From: Escherichia phage Ecwhy_1
Sequence record: MH791411.1
Reading direction: 5' to 3' (one strand)
DNA: 64,000 bases
A program made the position numbers and the translations under genes. The notes beneath the pieces are model-generated. The model was not told where the DNA came from. It searched no databases and saw only the letters and a list, made by a program, of their open reading frames with translations. Positions within the stretch are counted from its first letter, which is position 1, and each line of letters opens with the position of its first letter. This document shows, piece after piece, positions 24,238 through 39,635 of the stretch.

Positions 24238-24300
24238 GTGTAGTTCTCCTTATATTCCTTCTATAGTACACCAGTACTGAAAGGATGTCAAGGGTTTTGT
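24238..24300 (-). promoter_or_regulatory. early-type promoter of small-paralog array
   Basis: minus strand TTGACA-N17-TACTAT then AAGGAG. Confidence 0.55.
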
Positions 24301-24343
24301 TTATGGGGTATAAATATGATATAATGAATAAAGGAGAAGAAAT
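24301..24343 (+). promoter_or_regulatory. late-type promoter candidate of RCC1-like array
   Basis: TATAAATA (T4 late -10 consensus) ~28 nt before ATG, then AAGGAG. Confidence 0.5.
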
Positions 24344-25492
24344 ATGTTACCTTTTGTTAGAATGTTTGATTATGGGAATGAAGCACCTACCAACTCTGGG
24401 CGTTTTAAAATATATTCCAGTGATTCTATGTATCTTCATGATACTTATACTGACAAGTTGTATGCATCTTCTGCGACGAATTGGGGTACTGGTACAGGTG
24501 TAGCATCGAGTAAATTTATTCTTTGTGCGGAGAATGTTAAACGAGTTCTATTGGAAGATAACAGTAGTGATTGTCAATTGTATGAAGAGAAAGGTACTGG
24601 AAAAGTTTTTATCACTGGTAACACGAAGGCATTCACTGGTGTAACTGATAGAAAAACTTTGTGGACGGACTGTACTACGTGGATAACATCAAGTGGTATT
24701 AATGTTTCTGATATAAAATACATGAGTAGTTTTTATGATATGAAGGTGAATTTGATAACAAACGATGGTACATTGTATTGTTGTGGAGCTAACAATATAT
24801 CGAACATATCATCATTTGGTGATGGCACAAACATTAATTCTTTTAACACATTCAAAAGAGTAGATACTATAACTTCGGTTAAAAAGGCAGTTGGTAACAT
24901 TTATTTGCGAGAAGATAATACTTTATGGGGTTGTGGTTTTAACTATTACTACCAGTTGGGCACGGGTAATCAAACTTCTATTACTGGGGTGACGATGATT
25001 TCTTCGGATGTTATAGATTTTAATGTAAGTTATCAGAGTACATTTTTTATCAAATCGGATAATAATTTGTACGCTTGTGGTAAACAGTTCGGTGCACAAT
25101 ATGGGAACGAATTTGGTACAGGTGGTACTTCTACATCTACAGATATACAATATAAAACTCCCACATTATTGAGTGCAGGTGTTTATAGTTTATATACTTG
25201 TGTTGGTAACATGGCATCACATATAGTTAAAGGTGATGAAGTACTTTATGCATCTGGAAGCAACTCGTCTGGTCAATTAGGTGTTGGTAATAATAATAAT
25301 CAGTACTCCTATACTCCTTCATATACTTCGTTTAATACCTCTTGTAATTTGGTACGCACCCCATCTGGTTCACTTATACTTACTGATACTGGAAAATTAT
25401 ATTATTGTGGCCTTGCAATAGTAGTAATGGGTGGTATTTCTGGACAGAACGTTCTTAATTATACAGAAGTCGATATGTCATTTTTGCAGTAA
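24344..25492 (+). CDS. RCC1-like beta-propeller repeat protein, array member 1
   Basis: N-term MLPFVRMFDYGN; YYYQLGTGN and GQLGVGNN blade motifs. Confidence 0.85.
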   Translation: MLPFVRMFDYGNEAPTNSGRFKIYSSDSMYLHDTYTDKLYASSATNWGTGTGVASSKFILCAENVKRVLLEDNSSDCQLYEEKGTGKVFITGNTKAFTGVTDRKTLWTDCTTWITSSGINVSDIKYMSSFYDMKVNLITNDGTLYCCGANNISNISSFGDGTNINSFNTFKRVDTITSVKKAVGNIYLREDNTLWGCGFNYYYQLGTGNQTSITGVTMISSDVIDFNVSYQSTFFIKSDNNLYACGKQFGAQYGNEFGTGGTSTSTDIQYKTPTLLSAGVYSLYTCVGNMASHIVKGDEVLYASGSNSSGQLGVGNNNNQYSYTPSYTSFNTSCNLVRTPSGSLILTDTGKLYYCGLAIVVMGGISGQNVLNYTEVDMSFLQ

Positions 25493-25559
25493 ATTAATAT
25501 GCCAGTACTTGATACTGGCTTTTTTGATTAAATATAGTATAATGAATAAAGGAGGAAAT
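25493..25559 (+). promoter_or_regulatory. array intergenic cassette: terminator hairpin + TATAAT + AGGAGG
   Basis: GCCAGTAC-TTGA-TACTGGC + T-run, TTGATTAAATATAGTATAAT, AAAGGAGG. Confidence 0.65.
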
Positions 25560-26669
25560 ATGTTACCTTTTGTAAGAATGGTTAAGTACGGGAATATTGC
25601 ACCAGTACCGAAAAAAATAAAGAAAGTTATAGCAGGATATGATAATTTATATGTACTATATGGTGATGGTTCGCTATATGGTTGTGGAATCAATAACTAT
25701 CAACAGTTAAATATTGATGGAACTGCTACACAAAATAATTGGGTACTAATTACCAATGGTGTTAGTAATGCATGGGCTGGTGGATACAATATTTTATATT
25801 TGAAAGAAGATAAATTTATAATGCACGGAACTAATGTCTCATTAGGTTTAGGAAATACTACAATTCCATTAGGTGGAGTAGATGTAACTTCTTCATTCCC
25901 AGATATCTCTAATATTAAAATGATATCCATTGGTTTTGATTCAATGCACTATGTTAGTGCTGATGGTACAACTGTATATGGAAGAGGTATGAACACAAAT
26001 GGTTCTGTTGGTTCAGGTAGTACTTACTCACAGAGTACTTTCACTTCAGTACTGAATAATGGAACTAATCAGGTTATTGATATATTTGGTAACGTTAATA
26101 ATACAGTGCTTCTAACATCGAATGGTGAGCTTCGAGCATGTGGGACAAGTGCTTATGGTTCTATAGGAAATGAAACTGGTAAGTGGACATCGTTTGGTTT
26201 AAAATTATCTGGCACTAAAATAATGGGTGGTAATGGGTATAGTACGCTTGCATATACAAATTCGGGAATGTACCACTCAGGGTGGCAGTTAAATGGGGAA
26301 CTAGGAAATGGTTTAGATACTAACGTACAGGTATATCCATTTCAATTTAACTCTAAAACGATAGATAGCAAGATAGATAAAATTGCCAAATCATCATCTG
26401 GGTCATATGTTAACATGTACTCAACAACAGAAGGAAAGATATATACGACAGGTTCGTTTGGTAAAAACGGGTCAACTACTGCATTGAATTTGTTCACCAA
26501 TACATTAACACTTATAAATTACAATCCAGATACCGCCTCGTTGTATACGTGCACAAACTTCAGTGTTGTGTATGATGGTAATGAAACTATTGCTGTAAGT
26601 GGTAGTCCTACATATGTACCAGGGGGCGTTGCCGCTAATAGATGGACTACAATTCCATTACCCAAGTAA
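25560..26669 (+). CDS. RCC1-like repeat protein, array member 2
   Basis: track ORF trimmed to MLPFVRMVKYGN. Confidence 0.8.
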   Translation: MLPFVRMVKYGNIAPVPKKIKKVIAGYDNLYVLYGDGSLYGCGINNYQQLNIDGTATQNNWVLITNGVSNAWAGGYNILYLKEDKFIMHGTNVSLGLGNTTIPLGGVDVTSSFPDISNIKMISIGFDSMHYVSADGTTVYGRGMNTNGSVGSGSTYSQSTFTSVLNNGTNQVIDIFGNVNNTVLLTSNGELRACGTSAYGSIGNETGKWTSFGLKLSGTKIMGGNGYSTLAYTNSGMYHSGWQLNGELGNGLDTNVQVYPFQFNSKTIDSKIDKIAKSSSGSYVNMYSTTEGKIYTTGSFGKNGSTTALNLFTNTLTLINYNPDTASLYTCTNFSVVYDGNETIAVSGSPTYVPGGVAANRWTTIPLPK

Positions 26670-37714: not shown

Positions 37715-37746
37715 TATAATGCCAGTACTATGTACTGGCTTTTCTT
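37715..37746. terminator. terminator hairpin between convergent genes
   Basis: GCCAGTACTATGTACTGGC + T-run. Confidence 0.6.
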
Positions 37747-38397
37747 TTACATATTATATAATGTGAATGCAGTCACTTTACCAGTTGTTGTTAGTTCATT
37801 ATAAAGATACTCCAAGATTCTCGCACACTCTAAGTATATCTCGATATCATCATGAATAAGTGAGTACTGAAATAGCTGTTCTTCAGGTAATTTGTATTGA
37901 CTTCCTTTTAATGAATTGAGAATATCTTTCACATCATCAAGTACTGGGTAAAGTACGAAATCTTCATCATATTTTGAAGCAATAAATTCAAATCCACCAC
38001 CATCAGTACTAGATATACCAATCAGTACTTTATCAATCAAGTTAATGTTTATATAACGGTTGTGATTTGGGTGAATTGAAATCTCAAACATAAGAGTACT
38101 GTTACAATCAACATCAATATACAAATATACATCATTGAATTTATAAGTTAAGCAACCGTACTCAAGAAAATCAGAGCAAATAATTGATGAGTTTTTTCTC
38201 GTCTCTGCGTAATGCATCTTGATATTCTTTTCACGCATAAGTAATTCGAACTTTGCACTAAACTTGCCACCAGCAAGATAGTTAGTATTAGGACGTTTGT
38301 AACTTGCAACTGGTCGGTGGGATGATGTAAAGTATTTTTTTGTGAATCGTTTATGTTTAGTGAAATATTCTTGATAGAACTTACTTCTTTTATTCAT
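37747..38397 (-). CDS. hypothetical protein (216 aa), opposite strand inside array
   Basis: ORF track; GAGGT SD; divergent from array member 12. Confidence 0.6.
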   Translation of the reverse strand: MNKRSKFYQEYFTKHKRFTKKYFTSSHRPVASYKRPNTNYLAGGKFSAKFELLMREKNIKMHYAETRKNSSIICSDFLEYGCLTYKFNDVYLYIDVDCNSTLMFEISIHPNHNRYININLIDKVLIGISSTDGGGFEFIASKYDEDFVLYPVLDDVKDILNSLKGSQYKLPEEQLFQYSLIHDDIEIYLECARILEYLYNELTTTGKVTAFTLYNM

Positions 38398-38474
38398 GAG
38401 TACCTCAATTAAATCGCTGTAAAATTGTACATTATAAAATGATTAAATAAAGTATAACACAAGGAGATTTTATC

Positions 38475-39599
38475 ATGTTACCTTTCGTATTGTTATTTGA
38501 TTATGGGAACGAAAAACAAGAAAGTTCTTATGATGTTAGTGTATATGGAAACAATAACTACATTTTAAATAAACAAACTGGAAACCTTTTTGCATCCGGT
38601 GCTGCGGCATTCATGGGTGATAACACAGTTAAGTATTATATTACCCAAATAGAATCAAATGTTCATAGCTGTGAGATAGGTTTCCTATCATCATGGATAA
38701 TTAAGAAGGACAAAACTGTTTTCATTTTAGGAAACAAAAGCAGTATAGGATTAACTGGTTCGACAACATCATGGTTCGAAATTACAAATTTATTTTCTGC
38801 TGTTCCTGAAATATGGGACAACCTATTTGAATGTAAAGTTCAATTGGGATATAACTGTATACGTGTTATGACACCACTAGGATCAATCTATGCGATTGGT
38901 ACAAACACTTATGGTGCATTGGGTACTGGTACTACATCCTCATCAACTTCGTTCGTTAAAAGTGGTGCTGTGGATGCTGTACGCATGGAATCAACAGAAC
39001 GTTCAGTGTTCTATCAAAACAGTTCTGGACAATGGTTTGGATGTGGTGATAACACATATGGTATACTAGGTCTAGGAACTACCGCGAGTCGTGTAAACTC
39101 ATACACCGCACCAGTATGGACTAATGCAGAAGCTGTTAGCTTCTCTAACCGTGGGATCATATACAGCCTCAATGGTACTCTATACTCATGTGGTGACAAA
39201 GTTAATGGTCAGCTAGGGGATGGATATACACAAAGCATAGACGCTGCCAGGAGCACACCATACACCATAGGAACCGCATTCCAAATTGGTAAGGCAATAA
39301 CATCAGCTACACAAGCATCAGCCAACGTATTCATTGGTAAAGATAATAAGTTCTATGGTACTGGTAGTATTGCTGCTGGTATAAATGGTAGTGCTAGTGC
39401 TGCATTAAGTAAAGTTACTGCGTTATCAGCATCACTACCACCTGACATTACATACAATGATATTATAACATTTAATACAGGGACCGTAACTTTTATTCAA
39501 GCAAAAGGACAACTATATTATGTTGGTAGAAGAACTTACATAGATAATAGTTCAGACGTTACCACACAGTTCAGTGTAATTGGTGGCTTAGATAATTAA
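38475..39599 (+). CDS. RCC1-like repeat protein, array member 12
   Basis: MLPFVLLFDYGN; NTYGALGTGTT, NTYGILGLGTT, VNGQLGDGY. Confidence 0.85.
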   Translation: MLPFVLLFDYGNEKQESSYDVSVYGNNNYILNKQTGNLFASGAAAFMGDNTVKYYITQIESNVHSCEIGFLSSWIIKKDKTVFILGNKSSIGLTGSTTSWFEITNLFSAVPEIWDNLFECKVQLGYNCIRVMTPLGSIYAIGTNTYGALGTGTTSSSTSFVKSGAVDAVRMESTERSVFYQNSSGQWFGCGDNTYGILGLGTTASRVNSYTAPVWTNAEAVSFSNRGIIYSLNGTLYSCGDKVNGQLGDGYTQSIDAARSTPYTIGTAFQIGKAITSATQASANVFIGKDNKFYGTGSIAAGINGSASAALSKVTALSASLPPDITYNDIITFNTGTVTFIQAKGQLYYVGRRTYIDNSSDVTTQFSVIGGLDN

Positions 39600-39635
39600 A
39601 ATTAATCCAGTACTATTATAGTACTGGATTTTTTA
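39600..39635. terminator. bidirectional terminator candidate
   Basis: TCCAGTACTATTATAGTACTGGA hairpin flanked by T-runs between convergent genes. Confidence 0.6.

Follow-up and report, generated by a model that had tools for sequence, protein, structure and literature searches.

Twelve genes of one family form an array in the stretch of 64,000 nucleotides analysed here (the window; Escherichia phage Ecwhy_1, sequence record MH791411.1), and the array is probably best explained as a set of tagged accessory proteins, in which a docking or incorporation peptide is joined to swappable binding modules and the genes are shuffled at PeSL-like cassettes. The bodies of the proteins are predicted to fold as seven-bladed RCC1-like propellers and evolve under purifying selection, the N-terminal tag lies outside the fold and recurs on unrelated folds, and the breakpoints between related phages fall at the cassettes. 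The window showed patchwise identity of 83-99% to jumbo coliphages of the PBECO4/121Q/phAPEC6/G17 group (Asteriusvirus), with no record spanning the entire array, and by this likeness it is from an Asteriusvirus-like (PBECO4/121Q-type, Rak2-like) jumbo coliphage. The array occupied about 4% of the 350-kb genome.

The start ATG-TTA-CCT-TT(T/C), encoding MLPF, was found 12 times between 24344 and 38475, always on the plus strand, and nowhere else in the window. Eleven of the twelve copies were intact open reading frames (ORFs) of 369-397 aa, and copy 6 was frameshifted. A preliminary description of this DNA had given twelve co-oriented genes of 360-400 aa with a common N-terminal start; the twelve starts and MLPF...YGN in every copy were confirmed, with the corrections that one copy is not intact, that a minus-strand gene interrupts the series and that copy 12 carries L at position 6. 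Its proposal of RCC1-type propellers was borne out by Pfam matches in all twelve bodies and by two seven-bladed AlphaFold models. The Pfam family WD40_RLD matched the bodies with E values from 1e-30 to 4e-08, the scores always being below the whole-domain cut-off of 150 bits, and the cut-offs of RCC1 and/or RCC1_2 were reached by ten copies, with copies 5 and 11 just under (21.0 and 19.6 vs 22 bits). The full-length profile phrog_4219 matched the five copies tested with E values from 5.5e-110 to 1.5e-40. AlphaFold2 (AF2) models of copy I (predicted local distance difference test (pLDDT) 92.5, predicted template modelling score (pTM) 0.89) and copy A (pLDDT 87.3, pTM 0.86), which are copies 10 and 1 in Table 1, both contained seven four-stranded blades with blade 1 closed by the C-terminal strand. 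Foldseek, queried with the copy I model, returned UVR8, RPGR, HERC2 and RCC1 with a probability of 1.00, template modelling (TM) scores of 0.64-0.80 and identities of 15-20%. The models thus support bodies that are predicted ~40-kDa seven-bladed RCC1-like propellers. The body identity among the paralogues was 18-24%, with isoelectric points (pI) of 5.1-8.6, G+S+T+N contents of 36-46%, K+R of about 6% and no basic tail. Sequence relatives included bacterial RCC1-like proteins also bearing TIG/IPT, PKD and Flg_new domains, and structural relatives included viral proteins annotated as tail fibre.

The N-terminal tag was the most conserved segment of the family. Residues M1, L2, P3, F4, Y10, G11 and N12 were invariant in the copies of the window, and the mean pairwise nucleotide identity fell from 86% in the first 36 nt to 33-37% immediately beyond. 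Among 63 tag proteins from seven phages, M1, P3, F4 and N12 were invariant and R6 and Y10 were conserved in at least 90%. The synonymous codons of the tag (TTA, CCT, AGA, GGG) were nearly fixed in the window and in the Asteriusvirus genomes; in Pectobacterium phage CBB (genus Mimasvirus) and the metagenomic phage L008 the codons varied but the residues remained unchanged, which places selection at the level of the peptide. That the codons are nearly identical within the Asteriusvirus genomes is best read as an extra layer of homogenisation. In the copy A model, residues 1-18 had pLDDT values below 50; in the copy I model this held only for residues 1-3, the block means being 52 (residues 1-10) and 70 (residues 11-20). 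The tag and linker (residues 1-18/20) formed no propeller strand in either AF2 model. With low confidence and no propeller strand in both models, this segment is therefore not needed for the fold. The tag as a "velcro" strand closing the propeller was ruled out, this role being taken by the C-terminal strand in both models.

The N-terminal targeting tag suggested in the preliminary description was not only supported but extended, as the tag was also present on other folds. In L008 (361 kb; 41% identity to copy I), all 14 array genes started with MIPF[AVT][RK]...Y[GA]N, and among their cargos were a Kelch propeller, one protein each with Laminin_G_3 and Gly_rich_2, and one of 230 aa without a Pfam match. 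CBB encoded nine MLPF...Y[GA]N proteins at the syntenic locus and a nearby pair, of which three were Kelch, two Laminin_G_3, four others and none RCC1-like; seven of the nine were annotated as structural. A tag-only hidden Markov model (HMM), built from the first 30 residues of the 63 tag proteins and searched against 1.84 billion representative proteins, returned 115 clusters (50% identity) matched almost always from residue 1, Kelch and Laminin_G_3 cargos included, with the consensus M[LI]PF[AVG]R[MIV][LVF]xYGN. Residue 9, D or K in the window, was E in 38 of 112 clusters, and position 13 was E in 4 of the 12 copies. No conserved prohead-protease site ((L/I)-x-E) was found after the tag in the window copies or the 112 clusters. 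The tag thus appears to be a fold-independent N-terminal label, and apparently a new one.

Proteins of this family have been detected in virions. Mass spectrometry (MS) of phAPEC6 virions listed gp003, gp005, gp006, gp007, gp009, gp010, gp549 and gp551 (Wagemans et al. 2020, PMC7247149), and in our computed mapping gp549 was the counterpart of copy A (95% identity) and gp005 that of copy I (93%), which supports, for the orthologues, the virion association proposed earlier. CBB_536, 537, 551 and 552 were also identified by MS (PMC5259590), and the presence of multiple copies was remarked on by Buttimer et al. 2017, who also stated that GAP32 gp001 had earlier been MS-identified as a structural protein (PMC5259590). 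121Q, PBECO4, G17 and phAPEC6 had the same array at the same position, and the flanks agreed with those of G17, PBECO4, EC.P1, WPEC3 and phAPEC6. The array itself and the label "regulator of chromosome condensation" are already in GenBank and two papers; for phAPEC6, eleven copies were counted and an inner-body or DNA-ordering role was proposed (Wagemans et al. 2020, PMC7247149). In the phAPEC6 record (MK817115), three intact tag-bearing ORFs at 2434, 6063 and 7325 (369, 396 and 244 aa) were unannotated, and about 2.4 kb was apparently repeated at the ends, the N-terminal sequences of gp550 and gp551 recurring at positions 3 and 1218; the published count is therefore approximate. The searchable open-access literature held nothing relevant on the tag, the cassette or the CAGTACTG motif, which is weak as evidence of absence.

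A composite of hairpin, T-run, promoter-like motif and Shine-Dalgarno sequence (SD) preceded most of the genes. The recurring inter-gene cassette described before proved to be specific to the array, with the full form upstream of copies 1, 2, 3, 6, 7, 8, 9, 10 and 11, a variant upstream of copy 4 and a degenerate form upstream of copy 12; copy 5 had none and was translationally coupled to copy 4 across an 8-nt gap, with the copy 4 stop overlapping the SD. The sequence TATAATGAATAAAGGAGG occurred nine times at no more than one mismatch, in the array only (0.14 expected). CCAGTA-N3-12-TACTGG occurred 12 times (0.03 expected), 11 times as the hairpin after a gene and once (28509) inside copy 4. 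The hairpins, with folding energies of -10 to -16 kcal/mol and z values of -4.3 to -6.1, were followed by U-runs, and terminator-like sites numbered 23 against 6.4 expected. All cassettes had TAAATA-N3-TATAAT in common, reading ATTAAATA and then TATAAT, and a similar pair, TTAAATA-N4/5-TATAAT, was retained in the L008 cassettes, which argues for function.

TTGATT/TATAAT as a standard sigma-70 pair, for which the spacer is 16-18 nt, was rejected on its spacer of 8 nt. The loop TTGA(T/G)(A/T), taken as a -35 element, would leave a spacer of 18 nt for copy 2 alone and of 23 nt elsewhere. The consensus promoter scan of the window gave 68 promoter-like sites, compared with 84.6 in shuffles. The TATAAATA before copy 1, singled out in the preliminary description as a T4 late-promoter consensus, was indeed present at 24309 but was not special; late transcription of copy 1 alone through it was weakened as a candidate, because phAPEC6 has TAAATA at the same spot and all cassettes carry TAAATA-N3-TATAAT. 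Motifs of the TATAAATA type were depleted in the window (3 vs 13.7 expected); in phAPEC6 they occurred upstream of baseplate genes, and this phage encodes a late sigma factor. Late transcription of the array is presumed on these grounds, as are the promoter class and timing.

Comparison of the relatives showed that the genes were exchanged as whole units. When every tag gene of the window and of five relatives (six phages) was clustered, at least 24 orthogroups, or gene types, resulted, and their content and order differed among the phages: A D G E B fs H C F I J K in the window, A D W G M r B fs H C F Q J K in EC.P1, A D G M r E B L fs H C F I P Q J K in WPEC3, E B N A C fs I F V r in PBECO4 and R E B S A N C O T U P L r in G17. 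The E-B pair was kept together in all five phages having type E. For nine of the twelve window copies, EC.P1, WPEC3 or ECO103 4-12-1 had a gene with an identity of 96% or more. When three close relatives were compared with the window by megablast, all internal block boundaries lay in the stretch from hairpin to tag, between -88 and +46 of a gene start (ends at +31 to +46, starts at -1 to -88), and the sole other boundary lay 5 nt past the copy 12 stop, at the terminal hairpin. The overlap of adjacent homology blocks was either the tag (32 nt) or the complete cassette (113 nt). In the comparison of the window with PBECO4, the synonymous divergence (dS) ranged from 0.04 to 0.75 across genes while the ratio of nonsynonymous to synonymous divergence (dN/dS) of the orthologues was 0.18-0.25, indicating that the genes had different histories, each under purifying selection.

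The paralogue identity of about 20%, the dN/dS values and the breakpoints together indicate that the array is neither a recent duplication nor a hypermutation device, and they support a set of old paralogues probably shuffled as whole units at the cassette, which as a recombination joint appears to be new. The recombination-driven diversification envisaged earlier was thus upheld as whole-gene shuffling and not as hypermutation, given the orthologue ratios. The comparison with related phages for copy number and cassette exchange that had been suggested was carried out here and found gene types gained, lost and reordered at cassettes, and the recent neutral duplication that had been named as the outcome speaking against diversification was contradicted by the paralogue identity and the dN/dS values.

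In amino acid sequence, copy 4 (type E) was 72-73% identical to its counterparts in the four other E-bearing phages, and its cassette variant (GTAAATACATTATAAT) resembled the cassettes of the distant phage L008; the divergent allele together with the L008-like cassette suggests that copy 4 (27927-29192) was imported from outside the close clade. Copy 6 comprised the tag and 59 codons in frame 0, with a stop at 30558-30560, and a body in the +1 frame that was open at 30472-31560 (358 codons intact), the listed ORF beginning at GTG 30484. The frameshift was common to five phages (the window, EC.P1, WPEC3, ECO103 4-12-1 and PBECO4). Against PBECO4, copy 6 had a dS of 0.037 (0.23-0.75 in other genes) and a dN/dS of 0.42 on about 21 changes, and by these counts its spread among the phages appears to be recent. 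Neither a slippery heptamer (A5 and T6 runs only) nor an SD before the internal GTG was found in copy 6, which may be a recently spread pseudogene, the source of a tag-less product or a case of recoding. The arrays of G17 (29448-29582), PBECO4 (21338-21562), ECO103 4-12-1 (25515-25673) and phAPEC6 (14262) ended in a stub, MLPF(R/G)RIITSSK, that stops after 44-74 codons and in whose place the window lineage has types J and K; the stub is likely a cassette-plus-tag remnant, a scar of recombination.

These results can be combined into one mechanism. Each gene would consist of a 12-residue peptide (M-[LI]-P-F-x-R-[MIV]-x-x-Y-G-N), a short, usually proline-containing linker and a single globular domain rich in beta structure. 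From its place outside the fold, the tag would dock whichever domain follows it at a common site of the virion, and the variable domain would act as a binding module, either an adhesin or a decoration. Every gene would be its own unit, with an intrinsic terminator hairpin, the TAAATA-N3-TATAAT promoter-like element, a strong SD and the 36-nt tag-coding sequence. The conserved block of ~100-130 bp would provide a substrate for homologous recombination between co-infecting relatives, through which whole genes could be inserted, deleted, reordered or exchanged. For display outside the particle, the chances seem close to even but short of it; this placement is favoured because of the extracellular-type folds of the cargos, the amino acid composition and the structural relatives annotated as tail fibre.

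Several points weigh against this explanation. Docking function, external display and ligand binding are properties that we infer, and the results obtained here are compatible with external display and with packaging in the head. The MS evidence for each phAPEC6 protein amounted to 1-5 peptides and 3-17.5% coverage (PMC7247149), and the same virion list holds thymidylate synthase, a RecA-like protein and a single-stranded DNA-binding protein, so that carry-over is possible (PMC7247149). The cassette matched the late consensus at 6 of 8 positions, the promoter class being a presumed one. The cargos are single globular domains without an oligomerisation module, unlike the trimeric tailspikes of the docking-peptide systems.

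The strongest competing explanation, unlikely but deserving serious weight, is that the proteins are internal head proteins, with a tag that, like the capsid-targeting sequence of T4, would load diverse proteins onto the scaffolding core, and that they are packaged together with the DNA and ejected into the host, where the propellers would bind and block host defence proteins and their variability would reflect an arms race. A short N-terminal tag that is independent of the fold and separate from the domain agrees with this, 121Q and phAPEC6 possess an inner body (PMC5646251, PMC7247149), and detection in virions by MS as well as the different gene content of close relatives would be expected of such proteins. 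However, the tag is not followed by the protease site, the proteins are near-neutral rather than basic, the RCC1-like, Kelch and Laminin_G_3 folds are typical of extracellular binding modules, a survey of jumbo phages tied Laminin G3 domains to tail fibres and other virion components (PMC7824862), and the low MS coverage fits bulk internal proteins poorly. A broader form of the same idea, which we also consider doubtful, makes the tag a general cargo-loading address of Rak2-like jumbo phages, by which any domain behind it would be carried in the virion, with more than 100 cargo genes shared by cassette recombination; in its boldest version the cargos (propellers, lectin folds) would be packaged and ejected as anti-defence binders and not be surface adhesins.

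It is quite improbable that the proteins are intracellular and non-structural, with a common 5' end that serves as a signal in translation, regulation or degradation or simply results from gene conversion, and with an MS detection that reflects carry-over. The nearly fixed synonymous sites of the tag within Asteriusvirus are what gene conversion or an RNA-level signal predicts, and evidently non-structural proteins are present in the phAPEC6 virion list; but the residues were kept while the codons varied in CBB and L008, tag-bearers were found in the virions of three phages (phAPEC6, CBB and GAP32) in two papers, and the presence of 8 of about 13 tag-bearers in a list of 62 out of 551 proteins is very unlikely by chance according to our own binomial estimate. 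A role as DNA-condensation or inner-body proteins, following the database name and the phAPEC6 paper, is less probable still. The name was carried over from eukaryotic RCC1, and phAPEC6 and 121Q do have an inner body, with the proteins in the phAPEC6 virion list (PMC7247149). Yet the label derives from the fold alone, to which UVR8, RPGR and HERC2 are structurally as close as RCC1; the pI range, the K+R content and the lack of a basic tail do not suit DNA binding; the same tag and locus bear Kelch and lectin-like domains in other genera; and a copy number and gene types that differ between sister phages would be odd for an architectural component. Recent neutral tandem duplication as functionless genome padding is scarcely credible, even though tandem duplication has been proposed as a route of jumbo-genome expansion (Hua et al., PMC5646251), since it is opposed by the divergence of the paralogues, the low dN/dS of the orthologues and a family that spans several genera.

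Table 1. Genes of the array and the elements between them (positions in the window)
Feature	Position	Strand	Remarks
Array leader	24272..24343	+	CAGTACTG (24272), TATAAATA (24309), TATAATGAATAAAGGAGA (24320-24337), ATG
Copy 1 (type A)	24344..25492	+	382 aa; tag MLPFVRMFDYGN; 95% identity with phAPEC6 gp549 (MS-detected in virions)
Cassette before copy 2	25501..25559	+	Hairpin GCCAGTAC-TTGA-TACTGGC, T-run, TTGATTAAATATAGTATAAT, AGGAGG
Copy 2 (type D)	25560..26669	+	369 aa; tag MLPFVRMVKYGN; 64% identity with phAPEC6 gp009 (MS-detected)
Cassette before copy 3	26676..26740	+	Hairpin 26676-26695, T-run, promoter-like motif, SD
Copy 3 (type G)	26741..27922	+	393 aa; tag MLPFVRMFDYGN
Variant cassette before copy 4	27927..27998	+	Hairpin ATACCAGTAC-loop-GTACTGGTAT, T8, GTAAATACATTATAAT, GGAG
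Copy 4 (type E, divergent allele)	27999..29192	+	397 aa; tag MLPFARMVKYGN
Copy 5 (type B)	29201..30310	+	369 aa; tag MLPFVRLFDYGN; starts 8 nt past copy 4
Cassette before copy 6	30317..30380	+	Hairpin 30317-30335
Copy 6 (type fs)	30381..31560	+	Frameshifted; RCC1-like body in +1 frame
Cassette before copy 7	31565..31630	+	Hairpin 31565-31590, -16.2 kcal/mol
Copy 7 (type H)	31631..32776	+	381 aa; tag MLPFVRMFDYGN
Cassette before copy 8	32782..32852	+	Hairpin 32782-32809
Copy 8 (type C)	32853..34043	+	396 aa; tag MLPFVRLFDYGN
Cassette before copy 9	34051..34115	+	Hairpin 34051-34069
Copy 9 (type F)	34116..35303	+	395 aa; tag MLPFARMVKYGN
Cassette before copy 10	35292..35355	+	Hairpin 35292-35310, overlaps copy 9 end
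Copy 10 (type I)	35356..36507	+	383 aa; tag MLPFARMVKYGN; predicted seven-bladed propeller (AlphaFold); 93% identity with phAPEC6 gp005 (MS-detected)
Cassette before copy 11	36514..36577	+	Hairpin 36514-36532; TATAAAGAATAAAGGAGG
Copy 11 (type J)	36578..37714	+	378 aa; tag MLPFARMVKYGN; weakest RCC1-like profile match in the family
Terminator hairpin after copy 11	37721..37739	+	
Non-family gene between copies 11 and 12	37747..38397	-	216 aa; phrog_34359; same position in EC.P1 and WPEC3
Degenerate cassette upstream of copy 12		+	GATTAAATAAAGTATAA...AAGGAG
Copy 12 (type K)	38475..39599	+	374 aa; tag MLPFVLLFDYGN (position 6 = L, not R)
Terminal hairpin	39604..39630	+	AATCCAGTACTAT-loop-ATAGTACTGGATT and T-run, -15.4 kcal/mol; possibly bidirectional

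The minus-strand gene at 37747-38397 was compared by BLASTP with the other flanking minus-strand gene of ~217 aa (21578-22237), and relatedness of the two was not supported (E = 0.6). Upstream of the array, the minus strand at 19630-24237 carried a tandem run of about twenty paralogous genes of ~60-70 aa (e.g. MNKEHKEFY..., ...VLKLISI). Adjoining the array on the other side, at 39636-42075 and beyond, were back-to-back minus-strand paralogues of 104-123 aa predicted to be membrane proteins (the first is phrog_27618). CBB, although of a different genus, keeps this same neighbourhood of tagged array, small membrane proteins and a ~770-bp gene.

The palindrome AGTACT was found 280 times in the window, compared with about 22 expected, and CAGTACTG 67 times, compared with 0.83 in shuffles. 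AGTACT was part of every one of the most frequent 8-mers of the window; it was densest at 17700-19450 and was also dense in G17, PBECO4, phAPEC6, CBB and L008. Its contexts were minus-strand promoters (TTGACA-N9-CAGTACTG-TATAAT), ATTCAGTACTGAAT and coding sequence (Ser-Thr, AGT-ACT); split in two, it forms the stems of the array hairpins. The minus-strand promoters belonged to canonical PeSL-like units serving the flanking minus-strand genes (e.g. 1120-1190, 5535-5610, 13990-14060 and 48380-48450), in which the sigma-70-type TTGACA-N9-CAGTACTG-TATAAT was followed by a GGGGAGAA...TTCTCCCC stem-loop (GGGGAG...CTCCCC). The ~2 kb at 17650-19630 contained no convincing ORF and 13 CAGTACTG sites, with a tandem repeat of 8-bp period at 18425-18576 (units such as CGTCTAGC/CATCCAGC) and a similar gene-free gap in G17 and PBECO4; this region could be an origin or another cis-acting region. 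The tRNA and Rfam scans of the window, 17650-19630 included, gave no match.

Among known systems, the closest are the RCC1-like arrays of other Asteriusvirus phages (121Q_234-248, PBECO4 gp286-296, phAPEC6 gp549-gp010 and G17_00070-81; phrog_4219), which share locus, synteny, family and cassette with the present array. They are annotated as "regulator of chromosome condensation" or "DNA condensation protein", and their multiple copies and detection in virions have been published (PMC5259590, PMC7247149). The window differs from them by its own combination of gene types and by its divergent E allele. The published accounts consulted read the proteins as DNA-condensing and are silent on tag, cassette and shuffling. 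Eukaryotic RCC1-like domain (RLD) proteins (RCC1, UVR8, RPGR, HERC2) have the same seven-bladed propeller with GxxGQLG-type repeats, but the identity is 15-20% and E. coli has no Ran, chromatin or other eukaryotic partner; the basic regions of RCC1 proper, which acts in Ran guanine nucleotide exchange and chromatin binding, were not found in the sequences of the array proteins. The chromosome-condensation annotation of the array genes is misleading.

The T4 internal proteins (IPI-III, Alt) likewise carry a conserved N-terminal signal of ~10 residues on diverse, fast-turning-over virion proteins (PMC3012670), but the array differs from them by the absence of a conserved prohead-protease site, by its non-basic proteins and by folds of the binding-module type. 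Secondary receptor-binding proteins have N-terminal docking peptides of 7, 11 and 29 residues that are necessary and transplantable (PMC6872550, PMC13352976). These peptides (K1E/K1-5/SP6, KP32 and KP34, and predicted in the Menlow and PhiK64-1/RaK2 groups) resemble the tag in being short conserved N-terminal sequences on unrelated proteins. Proteins that lack them are no longer incorporated, and foreign domains can be attached to them (PMC6872550, PMC13352976), whereas for the array docking is proposed by analogy; their cargos are trimeric tailspikes or depolymerases in one to few copies on a T4gp10-like branching domain, compared with 9-17 single-domain propeller or lectin-like proteins per genome in the arrays. 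Foreign proteins have already been displayed or packaged by means of the docking peptide of KP32 and the capsid targeting sequence of T4, and if the MLPF tag were sufficient for incorporation, it could serve the same purpose in therapeutic jumbo phages. An address tag plus interchangeable binding module would also explain why sister phages differ mainly at the array, a difference that was noted without explanation for fEgEco12 and Ecwhy_1 (PMC13070987), and it might account for some unassigned virion proteins, possibly the capsid and tail "hairs" of these phages.

In T4-type phages, PeSL terminator/promoter cassettes mediate modular shuffling (PMC2839356, PMC4122927). Like the cassette of the array, they are repeated composites of stop codon, stem-loop terminator, promoter, SD and start, which stand in a hyperplastic region at the boundaries of insertions, deletions and replacements. 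The promoter of the array cassette differs in that it is not a canonical sigma-70 promoter and is nearer to a late-type TAAATA element, and the conserved block of the array runs 36 nt into the coding sequence, as the tag. The cassette would thus extend the PeSL principle outside the T4 group and into the coding sequence.

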